From Candidatus Thorarchaeota archaeon (GTDB taxonomy: Archaea > Asgardarchaeota > Thorarchaeia > Thorarchaeales > Thorarchaeaceae): a DNA stretch of 64,000 nt. The notes under the pieces were generated by a model, which saw only the letters and a program-made list of their open reading frames with translations, was not told the DNA's origin and did not search any database. A program made the position numbers and the translations under genes. Shown here piece after piece: positions 46,312 through 52,035 of this stretch; the stretch's first letter is position 1, and every line of letters begins with the position of its first letter. The DNA is taken from positions 160,001 to 224,000 of the forward strand of contig JAGSHN010000012.1 in the NCBI GenBank assembly GCA_029855935.1, read 5' to 3'.

Positions 46312-47241
46312 ATGTCTCAGGCGGAGCGGCCCAGGATGGACTTGGAACGTGCTCTGACCAAGCTCAGATACGACGACGAGGTCAGTGGATACGCTCTCAT
46401 CACCAACGATGGCGAGCCGTTCCTGTCCTTCTCGCTGCCTGAGGAGATACTCCCCAGTATCCGCGGTGCGATGAAGATACACTCTACATCCTTGAAGCTA
46501 ATGAACATCATGGCCGGCCCCTGGACAGTTGTCTTGGCTCGCGTCAATCCTGACTGGGTCCTTGCGACGGTCTTTGCAGAGGTGCAGTTGGGTATTGCGC
46601 TCCAGAAGACGCGCGATGTAGTGCGTCTTCTTGAACAGGTGAAGCTGCCTCCGCCCCCGTCTGCAAGACCTGCAGAATCGGCTGCTGAGGTCCCAACGAC
46701 CGCTGAGGCCCCGGGGGCAACGGAGCCAGCACTATCTGAAGAGCCCGCGGTCGCTCCCGCTAAGAAGACAAGGGTGACTCACGGTTGTGTGGTACATCGC
46801 GGACCGAGGTACGCCGAGGCGATGCGTCTGGGATCGGAGTTGAACCACAGGCTGCGTGATCTTGGAGCGTTCGCCATTGATGTCCTGCTCCTTGTCGACG
46901 AGGAGCGGACCGTGTTCAAGATTGCAGAGACCCTTGCAAGGTCTGTTGACAAGGTCATCGAGGTCGTGCGCTGGTCTGTATCGAACCAGATTGTCACCGT
47001 GGAGTGCCCGGAGGAACAGGAGTCTGGCGAGCGTGTCATTGTCGAGGTCCCCATCTTTGAGGGCGAGCTAAGCAAGGCCAAAGCTGAGCACAGGCCTGTC
47101 CTGGAGCTCTGCAAAGGGGAGTTGACTCTCAATGAGATTGCCAATCAACTCGGGATGACATACTTTGAGGCAATGCAGTGCATCCTTCCGTACCGCGGCA
47201 AGACTCTACGCTTTGTTAGCACCAGTCGTGTAGTTTCGTAG
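46312..47241 (+). CDS. roadblock/LC7 domain + linker + two winged-helix domains (copy 1)
   Basis: L..L.....V.GY.LI..DG.P..S ... V.LG.AL roadblock pattern; Pro/Ala/Glu linker; LVD..RTV..IA and LC.G..T..EIA..LG helices. Confidence 0.75.
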   Translation: MSQAERPRMDLERALTKLRYDDEVSGYALITNDGEPFLSFSLPEEILPSIRGAMKIHSTSLKLMNIMAGPWTVVLARVNPDWVLATVFAEVQLGIALQKTRDVVRLLEQVKLPPPPSARPAESAAEVPTTAEAPGATEPALSEEPAVAPAKKTRVTHGCVVHRGPRYAEAMRLGSELNHRLRDLGAFAIDVLLLVDEERTVFKIAETLARSVDKVIEVVRWSVSNQIVTVECPEEQESGERVIVEVPIFEGELSKAKAEHRPVLELCKGELTLNEIANQLGMTYFEAMQCILPYRGKTLRFVSTSRVVS

Positions 47242-47256
47242 TGGAGGTGACGAGAG

Positions 47257-47763
47257 ATGGGAGTGAAAGGAAAACTCGCGTGGACATTAAAGATTGACAA
47301 AGTGGCGAAGCCACTGTTTCAGGCGACCTACCGAGAGCTGATGAACACGCTCATACAGACGTGCGACAATATCGAAGAGGTCAACAGGCGAATGAAGGAG
47401 ATTGGCTTTCGCGTTGGACAGGACCTGTTGATGGAGTACGCAGACAAGATACGAAAGCACGCCTCGACATTCGTGGAGTTCAGCAAGACACTTCAGCTCG
47501 CCTACAAGGTGAACAGCGGACAGGAGTTTACCGATGTGTGGATCAGTGAGGACGGTCGCGTGATCAAATATACTGACGACCATTGTGTGTTGTGTGAGGG
47601 CGTGGAGATTCGCGACATGCCCGGACTCCAGTATTGCGGTCTCATCTCCGGCGTGTTTCAAGCGGTCATGGACCTGCGTGGATTCAAGGCCGAGGCCTAT
47701 CAGGAGTCCTGTCGCGCGATTGGCGACTCCACCTGTCGCTGGACCATCCGGCTTCTTGAGTGA
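47257..47763 (+). CDS. Bet3/TRAPP-like V4R protein (copy 1)
   Basis: KV...LF..TY..L...L....NIEEVN..M..IGF.VG..L resembles the Bet3 N-terminus; V4R Cys motif YC..ISG....E.CRA.GD..C. Confidence 0.8.
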   Translation: MGVKGKLAWTLKIDKVAKPLFQATYRELMNTLIQTCDNIEEVNRRMKEIGFRVGQDLLMEYADKIRKHASTFVEFSKTLQLAYKVNSGQEFTDVWISEDGRVIKYTDDHCVLCEGVEIRDMPGLQYCGLISGVFQAVMDLRGFKAEAYQESCRAIGDSTCRWTIRLLE

Positions 47764-47851
47764 CCCCTAGTGGGCTAGCGAACATGTATAAATGGCGGGA
47801 GGTATCATGCAGTGGTGAAACGGTCCACGGAGACCAAGAGGAGGCAATGGA

Positions 47852-48352
47852 ATGGGACAGATCTCTGGCACGCTTGTGGGAATGGTCGTCGCGTTCCTTA
47901 TCACGTTCCTGATACTCATGTTTGGTGGTTCGATTCACGAGGATCTCATCCCCCCTGAGATCGTCGCGGACTTTCTTAGCAGGCCTGATCTTGAGCTCAA
48001 GCTTGCAGTGGTGGGAACAGTGATGTATCCACCCTACCTGGGGATGCAGCTTGGTTTCGGCGCTCAGGGTTCCACAATCCTGATGTTCCTCGCCTGGGGA
48101 ACCGGCGGTCTTATTGCTGGAGCTCTGTCTCGCGAGATCATTCCCGGCGTATTCGCAGCCATCTTCGCAGTCATCATCGGTGCGTTTCTGATGTGGCTGC
48201 TGATATTCTTTATCAGCACAACTGACTTCATGGCAATCTTTGGGGGCACTTCAATGTTGCTCCTTCAATTCGTTCTTGAGGGTGCTATATATCCCGCAAT
48301 TGCTGCAGTCGTGGGGAGTCTCCTCGGGAGCGGTGTCACGCGTGAGCGGTGA
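47852..48352 (+). CDS. membrane protein
   Basis: About 4 TMs, W..GG.IAG motif; upstream tataaa at ~47787. Confidence 0.75.
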   Translation: MGQISGTLVGMVVAFLITFLILMFGGSIHEDLIPPEIVADFLSRPDLELKLAVVGTVMYPPYLGMQLGFGAQGSTILMFLAWGTGGLIAGALSREIIPGVFAAIFAVIIGAFLMWLLIFFISTTDFMAIFGGTSMLLLQFVLEGAIYPAIAAVVGSLLGSGVTRER

Positions 48353-48914
48353 TGGTGTCGCAATCATCTTCAGTGCCCAGCTCGCGTCCGCACTCAGAGC
48401 ATATCAGGGGTCGGGACTTGAACACCGCCCCGCACTCGCATCTGGTGAGTATCGACTCGGGGGGAGGCACGGTTCCCCCACGCGTCAACACCTCAACGGC
48501 AATGCTGGTCGGGAGGATGGTGACAAGGCTGACCTGGGAGAGCAGAATCCCCTGTGCGAAGACTAGGAACAGTGTCGTATTTCTCTCGGGAGAGTCCCAC
48601 AGCGACGGGTTAGAGATCAATAGCGCAGCAATGGCAAGAGCTGAGAGAACGGCTCCCAGCCACAGAGATGATCTGACGCTATTCCACCCTCTCTTGGCCA
48701 CGACTCCTGCGATGACGCCCATCAACAGCCAGGTAGGAAGATGCGTCAACGGGTTTAGCACGTGATCAACCACGCCCTGAACGCTGAGAAGATATTCTCC
48801 TCCCCGCAGGATGCGTGTCAGCACATCCGTAGAGCCTCTTATGCCTGACACCCAGACATCTGTGAGATAGGCTCCTACCAGTGCCGCGGCCAGCGCACCA
48901 CCAAAGTTTCTCAT
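48336..48914 (-). CDS. membrane protein with C-terminal zinc ribbon
   Basis: About 4 TMs, W...G.IAG motif, CECG...CSECG. Confidence 0.72.
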   Translation of the reverse strand: MRNFGGALAAALVGAYLTDVWVSGIRGSTDVLTRILRGGEYLLSVQGVVDHVLNPLTHLPTWLLMGVIAGVVAKRGWNSVRSSLWLGAVLSALAIAALLISNPSLWDSPERNTTLFLVFAQGILLSQVSLVTILPTSIAVEVLTRGGTVPPPESILTRCECGAVFKSRPLICSECGRELGTEDDCDTITAHA

Positions 48915-49123
48915 CTCTCTCGACCTGTGATGTTGTCTGTGGCGCGGTCTTCCGCCCCTCTGGTGTGGGCTGTTGTCAGCCATTTAATGTTTCTGAACTG
49001 TGAGGTCACAACTCATTCGCCACAACTCGCAGACACGTCACCGCAATCCTTTTCTGATGTGCCTCCTCCCATATTCTCGAAGGCGACACGCCAGCGCCAG
49101 GGACCACAAGGTGTGTATCTGAC

Positions 49124-50089
49124 ATGTCCGGCGACCTTGAAAGAGCGTTATCCAAGCTCAGGTTTGATGATCAGGTCATTGGCTACTCCCTGATGACCAA
49201 GGGTGGCAGGCCGTTTGTCAGCTTTTCCTTTCCAGACGACCTTTTCCCGCGTGTCAAGGAGAGCATCAGCCTGTACAAGACCGACCTGAGACTAATGACC
49301 ATCGATACGGACAAGGGCCTTGTGGTTCTCGCTCCGGTCGACGACAACTGGATACTCACAGTCCTGTATGTTCCCGAGCTACAGCTGGGGTTGGCGATTG
49401 CCAAGACCAAGAACGTCCTGCGGATGCTTGAGGGGATCGAGCTGCCCCCGCCGCCTGAAGAGTTCGAGGAGGCCGTAGAGTCCAACTTGGAGGTTCTAGA
49501 GAGCATTGCGATGCAGGCCGCCTCCACCGCTGCTGAGGCGGCACCGACTGTCGAGGAGCCCGCCCCTGCTCCTGCTCAAGAGGCAGAGGAGCTCTCTCCT
49601 GAAGACTTTGTCGTAACATCCGATACTGTCCCCAAGAAGGGCGAGGCATATGCAACAGCTCTCTCTCTCGACTCTGACCTATATGATGAGATGAGAAAGG
49701 CCTACCGCAACTTCGGCTTTGACATCCTCATGCTCGTCGACGGGCGGTCCACGGTTGCAGCCATCGCAGACGCAATGTTCCAGCCTGTTGTCAAGGTGGC
49801 CGAGGTACTGAAATGGGCTGCCTCGAAGCGGATAGTAGAGCTTCCGAGAGCTGGTGAGGCGGCAGCGGAGGGGGTCACGAAGAAGCCGTCCCGTTTTGTC
49901 AAGTGTCCGCGATTCGAGGGCGACCTCTCAAAGGTGAAGCCCGACCACCTGGCGGTTGTGCGGCTGTGTGACGGCACACGGACGACGGAACAGATTGCCG
50001 AAGCCGCCGGGATACCTGCTCCGCGGGTCATCCACATTGTGGCGCTGTACCGCAAGCACGGTATGAAAATGATTGGCAAGACCATCTAA
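49124..50089 (+). CDS. roadblock/LC7 domain + linker + two winged-helix domains (copy 2)
   Basis: DLERALSKLRFDD vs DLERALTKLRYDD in 46312; LVDG..TV..IA and LCDGTRT.EQIA. Confidence 0.78.
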   Translation: MSGDLERALSKLRFDDQVIGYSLMTKGGRPFVSFSFPDDLFPRVKESISLYKTDLRLMTIDTDKGLVVLAPVDDNWILTVLYVPELQLGLAIAKTKNVLRMLEGIELPPPPEEFEEAVESNLEVLESIAMQAASTAAEAAPTVEEPAPAPAQEAEELSPEDFVVTSDTVPKKGEAYATALSLDSDLYDEMRKAYRNFGFDILMLVDGRSTVAAIADAMFQPVVKVAEVLKWAASKRIVELPRAGEAAAEGVTKKPSRFVKCPRFEGDLSKVKPDHLAVVRLCDGTRTTEQIAEAAGIPAPRVIHIVALYRKHGMKMIGKTI

Positions 50090-50125
50090 TTCCTCAAACC
50101 CGACACACACCAGAGGTTCAAGGCA

Positions 50126-50599
50126 ATGGCGCGAATAGAGAACCCCCTACTTTTGAGCATCTACGGTCAGCTAGTGGACAAGATTCTTGCTGAAACGCAG
50201 AACATCGAAGAGGCCAATGAGCGTCTCCGTGAGCTTGGTCGCACTATGGCCGAGCAAATCTATCTCACCACGGACATCGTTGAGAAGACCAAGGACGAGG
50301 TCCTCACGAGAGAAGATGTTGCGAAGTTGGTTGAGGTGGTCTTCAGGGTTCTATTTGACCGCAAGCCCACAGAGATTGACATGGAAACGGCCCGCGGTTC
50401 TGTCCGGGTGAGCGACTCGAACTGCGTCTGGTGTCAGGACGTGAACTTGGAGGGGATGCCCGGTTTTGGCTACTGCGAAGTCTTCAGCGGCATTCTTGAG
50501 GCAATACTGAAGTACAAGGGCGTGGATGCACGTGTCTTCGAGGAGACTTGCAGGGCCACAGGAGGCGTGACCTGCTCCTGGAATGTACGTCTCGTATGA
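50126..50599 (+). CDS. Bet3/TRAPP-like V4R protein (copy 2)
   Basis: L...YG.LV..I.....NIEEANE.L..LG; CVWC..V....MPG..YC...SG...E.CRA.G...C. Confidence 0.8.
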   Translation: MARIENPLLLSIYGQLVDKILAETQNIEEANERLRELGRTMAEQIYLTTDIVEKTKDEVLTREDVAKLVEVVFRVLFDRKPTEIDMETARGSVRVSDSNCVWCQDVNLEGMPGFGYCEVFSGILEAILKYKGVDARVFEETCRATGGVTCSWNVRLV

Positions 50600-50683
50600 T
50601 GGAGAAGACTCCGTGGCAGCCCATGTCACAGGAAAGCACTTATCCCCGGCTGTGGACGGGGTATCTGCCCGGAGGTATCTGAA

Positions 50684-51232
50684 ATGTCTAAAGAGCCTGA
50701 GGTTATCAAGTGGTGGCGTGGTAGGCTCAAGGAGCGCGACCTGATGCGTGCGTTCTTTGCCAAGACGTGGACGAAGATTGGAAACAGAATCGCAGTTATG
50801 TTCCCGGAGAGAGTACGTGATCTCTACTACAGCGCGGGACGGCTTGCTGGGCTTGAGGCGCAACAGGAGTACTTCAGGATTGGAAAGCAGAAGCCGCCTG
50901 GGGACTTCAAGGGCATCGTAGAATTCATCAAGATGGCCCTCTCCACCATCATTGTCCCCTTTGGAGATGTCGAGATCCAGAAGCTCTACAAGCTCTGGCT
51001 TGATGAAGAGGCCATAATTGAGATTCGTGACAACCCTTATGCATCGGGTCTTCACAGCGAAGAGCCCTCGTGCTATTTCCTCAGGGGTTTCATTGAGGCT
51101 GTTCTTGAATACCTGACAGACTTCAATAGAATCGAGTACGAGACGCTAACGGTCGTCGAGGAAACTTGTATAGCCACGGGAGCTCCATCTTGTACATTCC
51201 ACCTCAAGTTGACATACCCCGCCAAAGGCTGA
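50684..51232 (+). CDS. V4R domain protein
   Basis: Y..G...G, FG, P.C.F.RG.I..V, V.E..C.A.G...C.F. Confidence 0.85.
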   Translation: MSKEPEVIKWWRGRLKERDLMRAFFAKTWTKIGNRIAVMFPERVRDLYYSAGRLAGLEAQQEYFRIGKQKPPGDFKGIVEFIKMALSTIIVPFGDVEIQKLYKLWLDEEAIIEIRDNPYASGLHSEEPSCYFLRGFIEAVLEYLTDFNRIEYETLTVVEETCIATGAPSCTFHLKLTYPAKG

Positions 51233-51306
51233 CCCCGACTGGTACAAGCGTTGCCCAAACACATACCTTAACTTCAAACTTTGAGAAGGAGCGTAGAGGT
51301 GGTGCT

Positions 51307-52035
51307 ATGCGTCGCTCTGCAGCTTTACTCTGTCTGGCCTTTGCAATGACCGGGATAGTAATTCTACTCAACTTCCAGCTGCAGACCGGCAGCGACGCTC
51401 TCGCTCTCCACGATGCGAGTCCCTCTGTTCCAGCCAGTGGAAGTGGTCTTGCAGTCGCTCCGTTCGGTCTTGCTCTTGGGACGATGCCCCTCAATACTTG
51501 GACATCAGGTTCTCTATTGCTCTCCGGAGGATGCCTGTTTGTCATCGCGACTGTGGAGGTCGGAGTGCCATCTGGGAGAGCACAGTCGTTGCGAGAACGC
51601 GTTGTCGGCGAGATTGCTGCAAATCCGGGGATTCATCTCAGGGAGCTGTTGCGGAGCGTCGGCTGTGCGATGGGTGCACTACAATACCACGTGAAAAACC
51701 TGGAGAGGGAGGGTCTGATAGTGTCTGTGAGGACGGGCAACTTGAAGCACTTCTTCGTTGCTGGCTTCTCGTCTGATGCGAACGTGCTGCGTCTGGTTGC
51801 TCTTCTCAGGAATCCGACAATTGCTGCCATTGTCAGAGAGTGTACCGCCTCCGGGCCGACTACGCAGGCCAGTCTGAGTAGAACACTGTCGATGGACAAG
51901 AGCCTCGTCTCCTACTATGTGGGTCTTCTACTCAAGGCAGGAGTGTTGAAGACGATTCCTGTGTTTGGAAGGGAACGCCCACTGACTCTGACCGACTGGG
52001 CTCGTGATGCCCTGAGTCAGTGGTCGGCACAGTGA
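51307..52035 (+). CDS. membrane-anchored double winged-helix transcriptional regulator
   Basis: Signal/TM segments, then R..V...I..NPG.H.REL......G.LQYH...LE and a second HTH S.VSYY...L...G. Confidence 0.82.
   Translation: MRRSAALLCLAFAMTGIVILLNFQLQTGSDALALHDASPSVPASGSGLAVAPFGLALGTMPLNTWTSGSLLLSGGCLFVIATVEVGVPSGRAQSLRERVVGEIAANPGIHLRELLRSVGCAMGALQYHVKNLEREGLIVSVRTGNLKHFFVAGFSSDANVLRLVALLRNPTIAAIVRECTASGPTTQASLSRTLSMDKSLVSYYVGLLLKAGVLKTIPVFGRERPLTLTDWARDALSQWSAQ

Follow-up and report, generated by a model that had tools for sequence, protein, structure and literature searches.

A thorarchaeal gene cluster pairing roadblock-winged-helix proteins with TRAPPC3-like proteins, a putative regulatory module for a small GTPase

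Described GTPase regulators and the thorarchaeal cluster

In eukaryotes, the core of the TRAPP complex combines Bet3/TRAPPC3 and TRAPPC5/6 with the longin subunits Bet5/TRAPPC1 and Trs23/TRAPPC4 and is a guanine nucleotide exchange factor, or GEF, for Rab GTPases; the NPRL2/NPRL3 pair of GATOR1 (Npr2/Npr3 of SEACIT) is a GTPase-activating protein (GAP) for the Rag GTPases. The same superfamily fold serves as a GTPase platform in MglB, LAMTOR and NPRL2/3, the roadblock fold itself being found in MglB, LAMTOR and the C-terminal domains of the Rags. Here we describe a seven-gene cluster at positions 46312-51232 of a 64,000-nucleotide stretch of Candidatus Thorarchaeota DNA (the window), in which two diverged gene pairs, each encoding a large roadblock-winged-helix protein and a TRAPPC3/Bet3-like protein, are accompanied by a V4R gene and two membrane-protein genes (Table 1). 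We rate it as somewhat better than an even bet that the cluster is a membrane-associated regulatory or sensor module for a small GTPase of the Ras superfamily whose gene lies elsewhere in the genome, with putative binding and activity. This reading follows from the constancy of the winged-helix partner beside TRAPPC3-like genes, the GTPase genes that recur near such pairs, the precedent of the mycobacterial Mfp proteins and the platform role of the fold. The build of the cluster is best read as closer to GATOR1 and the actinobacterial conservon than to TRAPP proper. Throughout, P denotes proteins of the window, L loci, G genomes (the source genome, G000, is 2.97 Mb and 97% complete) and f Asgard families; f1 is the Thorarchaeota family that holds the cluster, and f2 is its sister.

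The cluster resembles TRAPP in joining Bet3-family paralogues to a partner of the longin/roadblock superfamily, and elsewhere in Asgard TRAPPC1/Bet5 is the first match of the partner's N-domain profile (E 3e-5), with the pair lying near Ras-like GTPases. The partner in the window, however, carries a roadblock instead of a longin domain and two winged helices, which TRAPP lacks; its Bet3-like companions keep the V4R Zn(Cys4) site, and these proteins are not known to have GEF activity. Because a longin is lacking and extra winged helices are present, the cluster is not a TRAPP complex. A proto-TRAPP-like or GTPase-regulating module had been proposed by an earlier annotation of this DNA (hereafter the sequence-only reading). 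The build of the large protein does not support the first of these: it follows NPRL2/NPRL3, or a fusion of the roadblock and DUF742 proteins of a conservon, and not a TRAPP longin subunit.

Like NPRL2/NPRL3, the large subunits are two paralogues in which winged-helix-like domains come after an N-terminal domain of the longin/roadblock superfamily. The N-domain nevertheless starts with a helix, in roadblock topology, whereas the NPRL longin runs beta-beta-alpha-beta-beta-beta-alpha-alpha; Pfam NPR2 (PF06218) gave no match in the source genome at E<=1 (Pfam NPR3 was not searched), and no Depdc5-like partner was seen. The catalytic arginine finger of GATOR1 and its adjoining GP motif sit in the beta1-beta2 loop (PMC12290439). 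The beta1-beta2 loop of the large subunits has an invariant G28 and a P30 conserved to at least 90%, while residue 29 is Arg in P0003 and its line but Glu in P0001; this is a G-x-P only and does not establish the finger or the GP motif. With a roadblock as N-domain, no NPR2 sequence match and no Depdc5 seen, the cluster is not GATOR1. Liu et al. report an NPRL2-like family in most Thorarchaeota metagenome-assembled genomes (bioRxiv 10.1101/2020.10.19.343400). That family is probably the P0001/P0003 family.

In mycobacteria, the roadblock protein MfpD is the GAP, and the DUF742 protein MfpC the GEF, of the GTPase MfpB (PMC9769811, PMC11343762). The actinobacterial conservon (CvnA-D; MfpE-MfpD-MfpC-MfpB) consists of a roadblock protein, a DUF742 winged helix, a small GTPase and a membrane component. 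In the window, one fused chain holds both the roadblock and a winged helix of DUF742/HTH_47-like type, with membrane proteins encoded alongside. Unlike a conservon, the cluster has V4R/TRAPPC3-like proteins in place of a histidine-kinase-like sensor, its DUF742 match is below threshold, and the GTPase lies outside it, GTPases being present in a paralogous operon on contig C4. Because it has neither a kinase-like sensor nor a GTPase in cis, the cluster is not a conservon. Likeness to MglA-MglB lies in the roadblock, which matches MglB structures (E ~5e-5, TM-score ~0.7), and in the f2 cassette, which adjoins a divergent small GTPase; MglB itself is a stand-alone roadblock dimer with neither winged helices nor a V4R partner.

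Of the individual proteins, the TRAPPC3-like protein and Asgard roadblocks are already known, and an NPRL2-like Thorarchaeota family has been mentioned. Thor-TRAPPC3 forms a Zn(Cys4) homodimer with internal cavities in crystals, and ligand binding or transport was proposed for it (Tran et al. 2024, PMC10933270). P0004 shares the invariant cysteines of that protein, and P0002 is its paralogue. In the passages of the paper that were consulted, Thor-TRAPPC3 is treated alone, as a possibly ligand-binding homodimer, and there is no description of its paralogue, of the partner with roadblock and winged helices, of the membrane proteins or of the GTPase-linked operons. Obligate pairing, en-bloc duplication, embedded membrane proteins and GTPase-linked sister operons were likewise not found in the literature searched.

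Subunits and layout of the cluster

The N-terminal 108 residues of P0003 were modelled with AlphaFold2 (AF2) at a predicted local distance difference test (pLDDT) score of 93.7 and showed the roadblock topology, alpha-beta-beta-alpha-beta-beta-beta-alpha. A Foldseek search of the PDB with this model returned Asgard roadblocks (9JUE, 7F8M), LAMTOR2/p14 and MglB (E 3e-6 to 1e-4, TM-score ~0.7); there were 95 matches at E<=1e-3, and nearly all of those listed were roadblock proteins. The N-domain profile was also aligned by hhalign with the genome's own roadblock profile (95.3%, E 2e-8), and no significant hhalign match was obtained between the P0003 roadblock profile and the Asgard Bet5-like longin profile. 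P0001 was matched by the A1 and A2 profiles with E values of 6e-49 and 4e-62. The roadblock of P0001 and P0003 is a divergent branch of the Roadblock/LC7 family. Right after it, both paralogue families carry an invariant L-P-P-P-P (window 46642-46656 in P0001), where a polyproline-binding partner could dock, and the disordered acidic linker of about 55 residues has a median net charge of -10 to -12.

The C-terminal 159 residues of P0003 were modelled as two winged helices (AF2, pLDDT 86.8), and Pfam HTH_47 was found in 62 of the 63 members of the large-subunit family. Foldseek placed GATOR1/SEACIT subunits at the top for the winged-helix pair (E 4e-3 to 1e-2), and the Foldseek-independent VIA search returned 8fw5_C (Z 9.6) and 8adl_S (Z 9.4). 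After structural re-alignment, the pair matched NPRL2 residues 168-238 with Z 9.8 (71 residues; root-mean-square deviation 2.5 A) and NPRL3 254-558 with Z 10.3, the chains being assigned to NPRL2 or NPRL3 by their modelled length and the likeness being one of fold level only. All seven top PDB matches were GATOR1/SEACIT entries (Z 9.4-10.3); the first match beyond them was FAM91A1 (Z 8.8), and ordinary winged-helix transcription factors scored about 6-7. In an Atlas search the pair retrieved one NPR2-family cluster together with bacterial DUF8082/PatA_N clusters. Public annotations call members of the family 'hypothetical' or 'helix-turn-helix domain-containing', and Atlas language-model look-ups of P0003 and P0007 returned only Asgard clusters without a name.

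The small subunits were examined with the Pfam cut-offs for TRAPP (PF04051, 27 bits) and V4R (PF02830, 31 bits), and that for Robl_LC7 (PF03259, 23 bits) was applied to the large ones. P0002 (35.5 bits) and P0004 (28.1 bits) passed the TRAPP threshold and were the only two TRAPP matches in the genome. P0004 aligned end to end with the Thor-TRAPPC3 structures 7YH2 (E 7.6e-73) and 7YH3 (E 4.8e-71) and is, by sequence, the orthologue of the solved protein; from this orthology to the 7YH2/7YH3 homodimers it is predicted to adopt the two-layer alpha/beta Bet3 fold and to dimerise via its N-terminal helices. Its four invariant cysteines (Table 1) were scored over 62 aligned homologues. Matches of P0002 in the PDB comprised Thor-TRAPPC3 (E 2e-24) and eukaryotic TRAPPC3 chains (E 6.6e-8 to 1e-5), as against E 1.5e-4 for the best eukaryotic TRAPPC3 match of P0004. 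P0002, whose structure is unsolved, is therefore closer in sequence to eukaryotic TRAPPC3 than is P0004, and TRAPPC3-like proteins of other Asgard families scored far better with the P0002 profile.

In a tree of TRAPPC3-like proteins built from Asgard-internal sequences only, the P0002 type and the P0004 type formed sister clades (support 86/98), and the single f2 protein fell on the P0004 side (support 97/98). The position of the f2 protein argues that the duplication is older than the f1/f2 split, and the long stem of the P0004 type that the crystallised Thor-TRAPPC3 is the faster-evolving copy. As judged from these comparisons, the gene pair was duplicated as one unit before the two families separated. 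P0005 passed the Pfam V4R threshold with 39.1 bits and had a weak PDB match to MJ1460; its conservation is the highest in the cluster (median identity 77%), and it stays with P0003-P0004 in f2. A prediction of the P0003-P0004 complex from alignments A3 and A4 reached 0.24 where the mark was set at 0.32, which gives no verdict either way.

All five open reading frames (ORFs) named in the sequence-only reading were present exactly where it had placed them, on the + strand, with gaps of 15 bp within pair 1 and 36 bp within pair 2. P0001 and P0003 are paralogues over their full length (36% identity, E 7e-55), and P0002 and P0004 are paralogues too (27% identity, E 2e-31). That reading's description of two tightly linked pairs, of roadblock-linker-winged-helix-winged-helix proteins followed by Bet3-like proteins and a third V4R gene, and of homologous but diverged paralogues is thus borne out. 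Absent from it were P0006 and P0007, which belong to the conserved cluster; the two genes are convergent, their 3' ends overlapping by 17 bp (48336-48352), and P0007 is divergent from P0003. The idea that these two proteins are paralogues was dropped because BLASTP detected no similarity between them. Directly downstream of P0005 lies a MarR/HVO_0163-type helix-turn-helix (HTH) gene (window 51166-52035), which is kept there in 50 Thorarchaeota loci and is a possible regulator of the cluster; its true start is probably later than the listed TTG, since that start overlaps P0005.

Table 1. Coding features of the cluster, in window coordinates
Feature	Position	Strand	Description
P0001	46312..47241	+	309 aa; large subunit, paralogue A; roadblock, linker, two winged helices
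P0001 parts	roadblock ~46330-46650; two winged helices ~46771-47229	+	Linker Pro/Ala/Glu-rich, begins LPPPP
P0002	47257..47763	+	168 aa; TRAPPC3/Bet3-like V4R-fold protein; Cys 110, 113, 127, 160 conserved
P0006	47852..48352	+	166 aa; multi-pass membrane protein; no Pfam family
P0007	48336..48983	-	215 aa; basic N-terminus, hydrophobic segments, C-terminal Cys4 zinc ribbon (C182, C184, C195, C198)
P0003	49124..50089	+	321 aa; large subunit, paralogue B; type kept in sister family f2
P0003 parts	roadblock 49124-49447; LPPPP 49442-49456; two winged helices 49610-50086	+	Linker acidic
P0004	50126..50599	+	157 aa; orthologue of crystallised Thor-TRAPPC3 homodimer, Zn(Cys4) site; Cys 100, 103, 117, 150 invariant
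P0005	50684..51232	+	182 aa; classical prokaryotic-type V4R protein

Related gene pairs and small GTPases in Asgard genomes

TRAPPC3-like genes were found in 9 of the 27 sampled Asgard families, and homologous pairs of a winged-helix protein and a TRAPPC3-like protein in at least seven. In f2 (L078) only P0003-P0004-P0005 are kept; the flanking genes of the window are absent, and the cassette stands head-to-head with a divergent small GTPase that scores weakly on the Pfam Ras, Arf and SRPRB models. In f12 (L089-L092), homologues of P0001/P0003 consisting of a roadblock, a Pro-rich linker and a single winged helix adjoin homologues of P0006 and P0007. Their linkers are much longer, with PPPLEPPP-type repeats, and no TRAPPC3-like gene lies beside these loci; where f12 does have a TRAPPC3-like gene, the gene before it, at a distance of 10-70 bp, always encodes a 160-190-aa protein that combines a cysteine-containing N-domain with the same kind of C-terminal winged helix. 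A winged-helix partner directly upstream of, and abutting, the TRAPPC3-like gene was also seen in f13 and f15.

Families f4 and f16 have, as the partner encoded upstream of TRAPPC3-like, a longin-winged-helix protein. The profile of this type of longin found as its first PDB matches TRAPPC1 (3.3e-5) and Bet5 (4.9e-5 and 2.9e-4), followed by AP sigma, MON1 and TRAPPC4. The f16 operon (L110 499-2774, L111 20-2774), which encodes two Ras-like GTPases, the longin-winged-helix protein and the TRAPPC3-like protein in that order, is the cleanest proto-TRAPP-like gene set found in this analysis. In f10, Candidatus Sifarchaeum subterraneum has a 296-aa ORF (L081 3318-4208 = L112 1045-1935) in which a Bet5-like longin is fused to a TRAPPC3-like domain; a Heimdall fusion of similar kind is mentioned in PMC10933270. 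Tandem TRAPPC3-like pairs, or a single such gene among GTPase and roadblock genes, occur in f7.

The source genome itself holds further arrangements of this kind, all outside the window. An operon on contig C4 (111817-114188; L087 3818-6189) encodes two Ras GTPases, a 156-aa protein with a Cys domain and a winged helix, and a 204-aa V4R/Bet3-like protein. Within the 156-aa protein, the C-terminal winged helix aligned with winged helix 2 of P0003 (hhalign 95.7%, E 9e-9), the P0002 profile matched the V4R protein over its full length, and the trio of GTPase, winged-helix and V4R genes is kept in 9 further Thorarchaeota genomes of 7 genera. The N-domain of the C4-type 156-aa partner was tried as a roadblock and ruled out by hhalign. 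A second operon, on contig C28 (124296-127388; L086 4297-7389), encodes an XylR_N+V4R protein, a roadblock, an Arf-like GTPase, a 154-aa protein without a Pfam family and two more roadblocks. On contig C21 (244462-245211), 33 kb downstream, lies the orthologue (58% identity) of the GTPase that stands head-to-head with the f2 cassette. This divergent GTPase, a candidate partner, is extended at its C-terminus by about 70 residues, and a TPR protein is encoded next after it.

What is constant beside Asgard TRAPPC3-like genes is therefore a partner ending in an HTH_47/DUF742-like winged helix and not the roadblock domain: the N-domain of the partner varies between a roadblock, a TRAPPC1/Bet5-like longin and a cysteine domain, and GTPase genes recur nearby. 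Since the C4-type N-domain is not a roadblock, and roadblock and Bet5-like longin profiles do not match, these N-domains were not treated as one family. The sequence-only reading had taken the roadblock:Bet3 pairing, retained through duplication, as a sign of a physical, possibly hetero-oligomeric complex, which stays putative, and had called for a synteny survey. Such a survey found the pairing kept in Thorarchaeota and, with a varied N-domain in the partner, in other Asgard families; its recurrence across Asgard stands, the emphasis on the roadblock does not, and retention within Thorarchaeota alone is weak. Its proposal of a functional link between the pair and a small GTPase encoded elsewhere is likely, in view of the GTPase operons on C4, in the 9 further genomes and in f16, the head-to-head GTPase of f2 and the longin-TRAPPC3 fusion.

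Within Thorarchaeota, the order P0001, P0002, P0006, P0007 (- strand), P0003, P0004, P0005 is kept in every locus long enough to show it, and the complete set of seven genes was present in 42 of 63 loci. Median gaps were 16.5 bp (P0001-P0002), 24 bp (P0003-P0004) and 68 bp (P0004-P0005), and both large-subunit paralogues were found in 43/43 sampled f1 genomes.

Proposed role, alternatives and significance

In the mechanism that we propose, the roadblock domains would form a dimer, perhaps a heterodimer of P0001:P0003 on the pattern of NPRL2:NPRL3, and the dimer could offer a surface to the GTPase as a GAP, a GEF or a scaffold. The C-terminal winged helix would dock the TRAPPC3-like dimer, and the V4R-fold cavities of P0002, P0004 and P0005 may bind a hydrophobic ligand or lipid that sets the activity of the complex, with P0006 and P0007 anchoring or receiving it at the membrane.

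Several observations weigh against this GTPase-regulating role. No GTPase gene lies in or adjoins the cluster within the window, the nearest Ras-like gene being about 17 kb off and outside it. Synteny within Thorarchaeota was at first taken as strong evidence of coupling and then down-weighted to weak, because the unrelated flanking genes (PfkB, DUF72, the MarR-like HTH and an ABC ATPase) are likewise kept in place in most Thorarchaeota loci. The two pairs are not strictly co-dependent, since one f1 genome (G016, 97% complete; L085) is without P0001-P0002 and keeps P0006, P0007, P0003, P0004, P0005 and the flanks. The Robl_LC7 and DUF742 scores of the large subunits are also below threshold: P0003 scored 13.3 bits with Robl_LC7 and P0001 had no match to it, and DUF742 was detected in 27 of the 63 large-subunit members, in every case below threshold (best 4.4e-4). 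Finally, winged helix 2 is basic (pI 9.4), which also fits nucleic-acid binding.

An alternative explanation, with which this last property agrees, is that the cluster encodes a split, ligand-responsive transcription regulator whose V4R-fold proteins sense a hydrophobic molecule and steer DNA binding by the winged helices at the cluster or its neighbours. V4R is a known sensor domain in the bacterial regulators XylR, DmpR and PoxR, and the V4R paralogue encoded on C28 also has XylR_N; there are weak profile matches to TrmB, MarR and Sigma70_r4, a conserved HTH gene lies directly downstream, and the cavities described for the Thor-TRAPPC3 crystal (PMC10933270) are of a ligand type. The winged-helix pair, however, best matches the protein-binding C-terminal parts of NPRL2 and NPRL3 and not transcription factors, winged helix 1 is acidic, as is the linker, and the N-terminal roadblock, the longin partners and the GTPase context would be left unexplained. 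The DUF742 protein MfpC, moreover, is a GEF although an HTH is predicted in it (PMC11343762). We consider such a regulator improbable.

Another scenario, which we hold to be quite improbable, dispenses with the GTPase: the cluster would bind and transfer lipids or hydrophobic ligands at the membrane. The TRAPPC3-like and V4R dimers would shuttle a ligand towards or away from the two membrane proteins, with the roadblock-winged-helix proteins as adaptors. It would accord with the ligand binding or transport suggested by Tran et al. and with the two embedded membrane-protein genes, which travel with roadblock-winged-helix homologues in f12; but it leaves unexplained the GTPase neighbours that recur beside homologous pairs in several families, and no part in ligand transfer is known for the roadblock domain. 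That the seven genes have no common function, the two pairs being independent and held together merely by a Thorarchaeota-wide synteny that also fixes PfkB, DUF72 and the ABC ATPase, is very improbable given the short conserved gaps within the pairs, their duplication as a unit, the persistence of the cassette in f2 without the flanks, and the winged-helix partner beside TRAPPC3-like genes in at least seven families, with one fusion.

Returning to the regulatory or sensor module for a small GTPase, a bolder version of it can be put forward, tentatively and as rather unlikely in full. Dimers of Bet3/TRAPPC3-like type would have been associated with a longin/roadblock platform and a Rab/Ras-like GTPase before eukaryotes arose, and the thorarchaeal cluster would be a duplicated hetero-oligomer, made up of P0001:P0003 and P0002:P0004 together with a V4R sensor and anchors in the membrane, that works as a ligand-gated GEF or GAP. 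It would then resemble the common ancestor of the TRAPP core and of the NPRL2/3-type longin-winged-helix GAP subunits.

Asgard genomes encode dozens of small GTPases and of roadblock and longin proteins, and a few TRAPPC3-like proteins. In the structural study of these proteins (PMC10933270) it is stated that genome layout rarely shows which regulator serves which GTPase. Here, concrete partner sets can be named: a roadblock-winged-helix protein with each of the two TRAPPC3-like paralogues, a third winged-helix and V4R pair with two Ras-like GTPases in the same genome, and an operon of a Bet5-like longin, a TRAPPC3-like protein and GTPases in another Asgard family, f16. With these sets it can be tested directly whether an assembly resembling TRAPP or GATOR1, active as a GEF or a GAP, existed before eukaryotes, and the cluster thereby names testable partners for an archaeal forerunner of the eukaryotic GTPase-regulating complexes.

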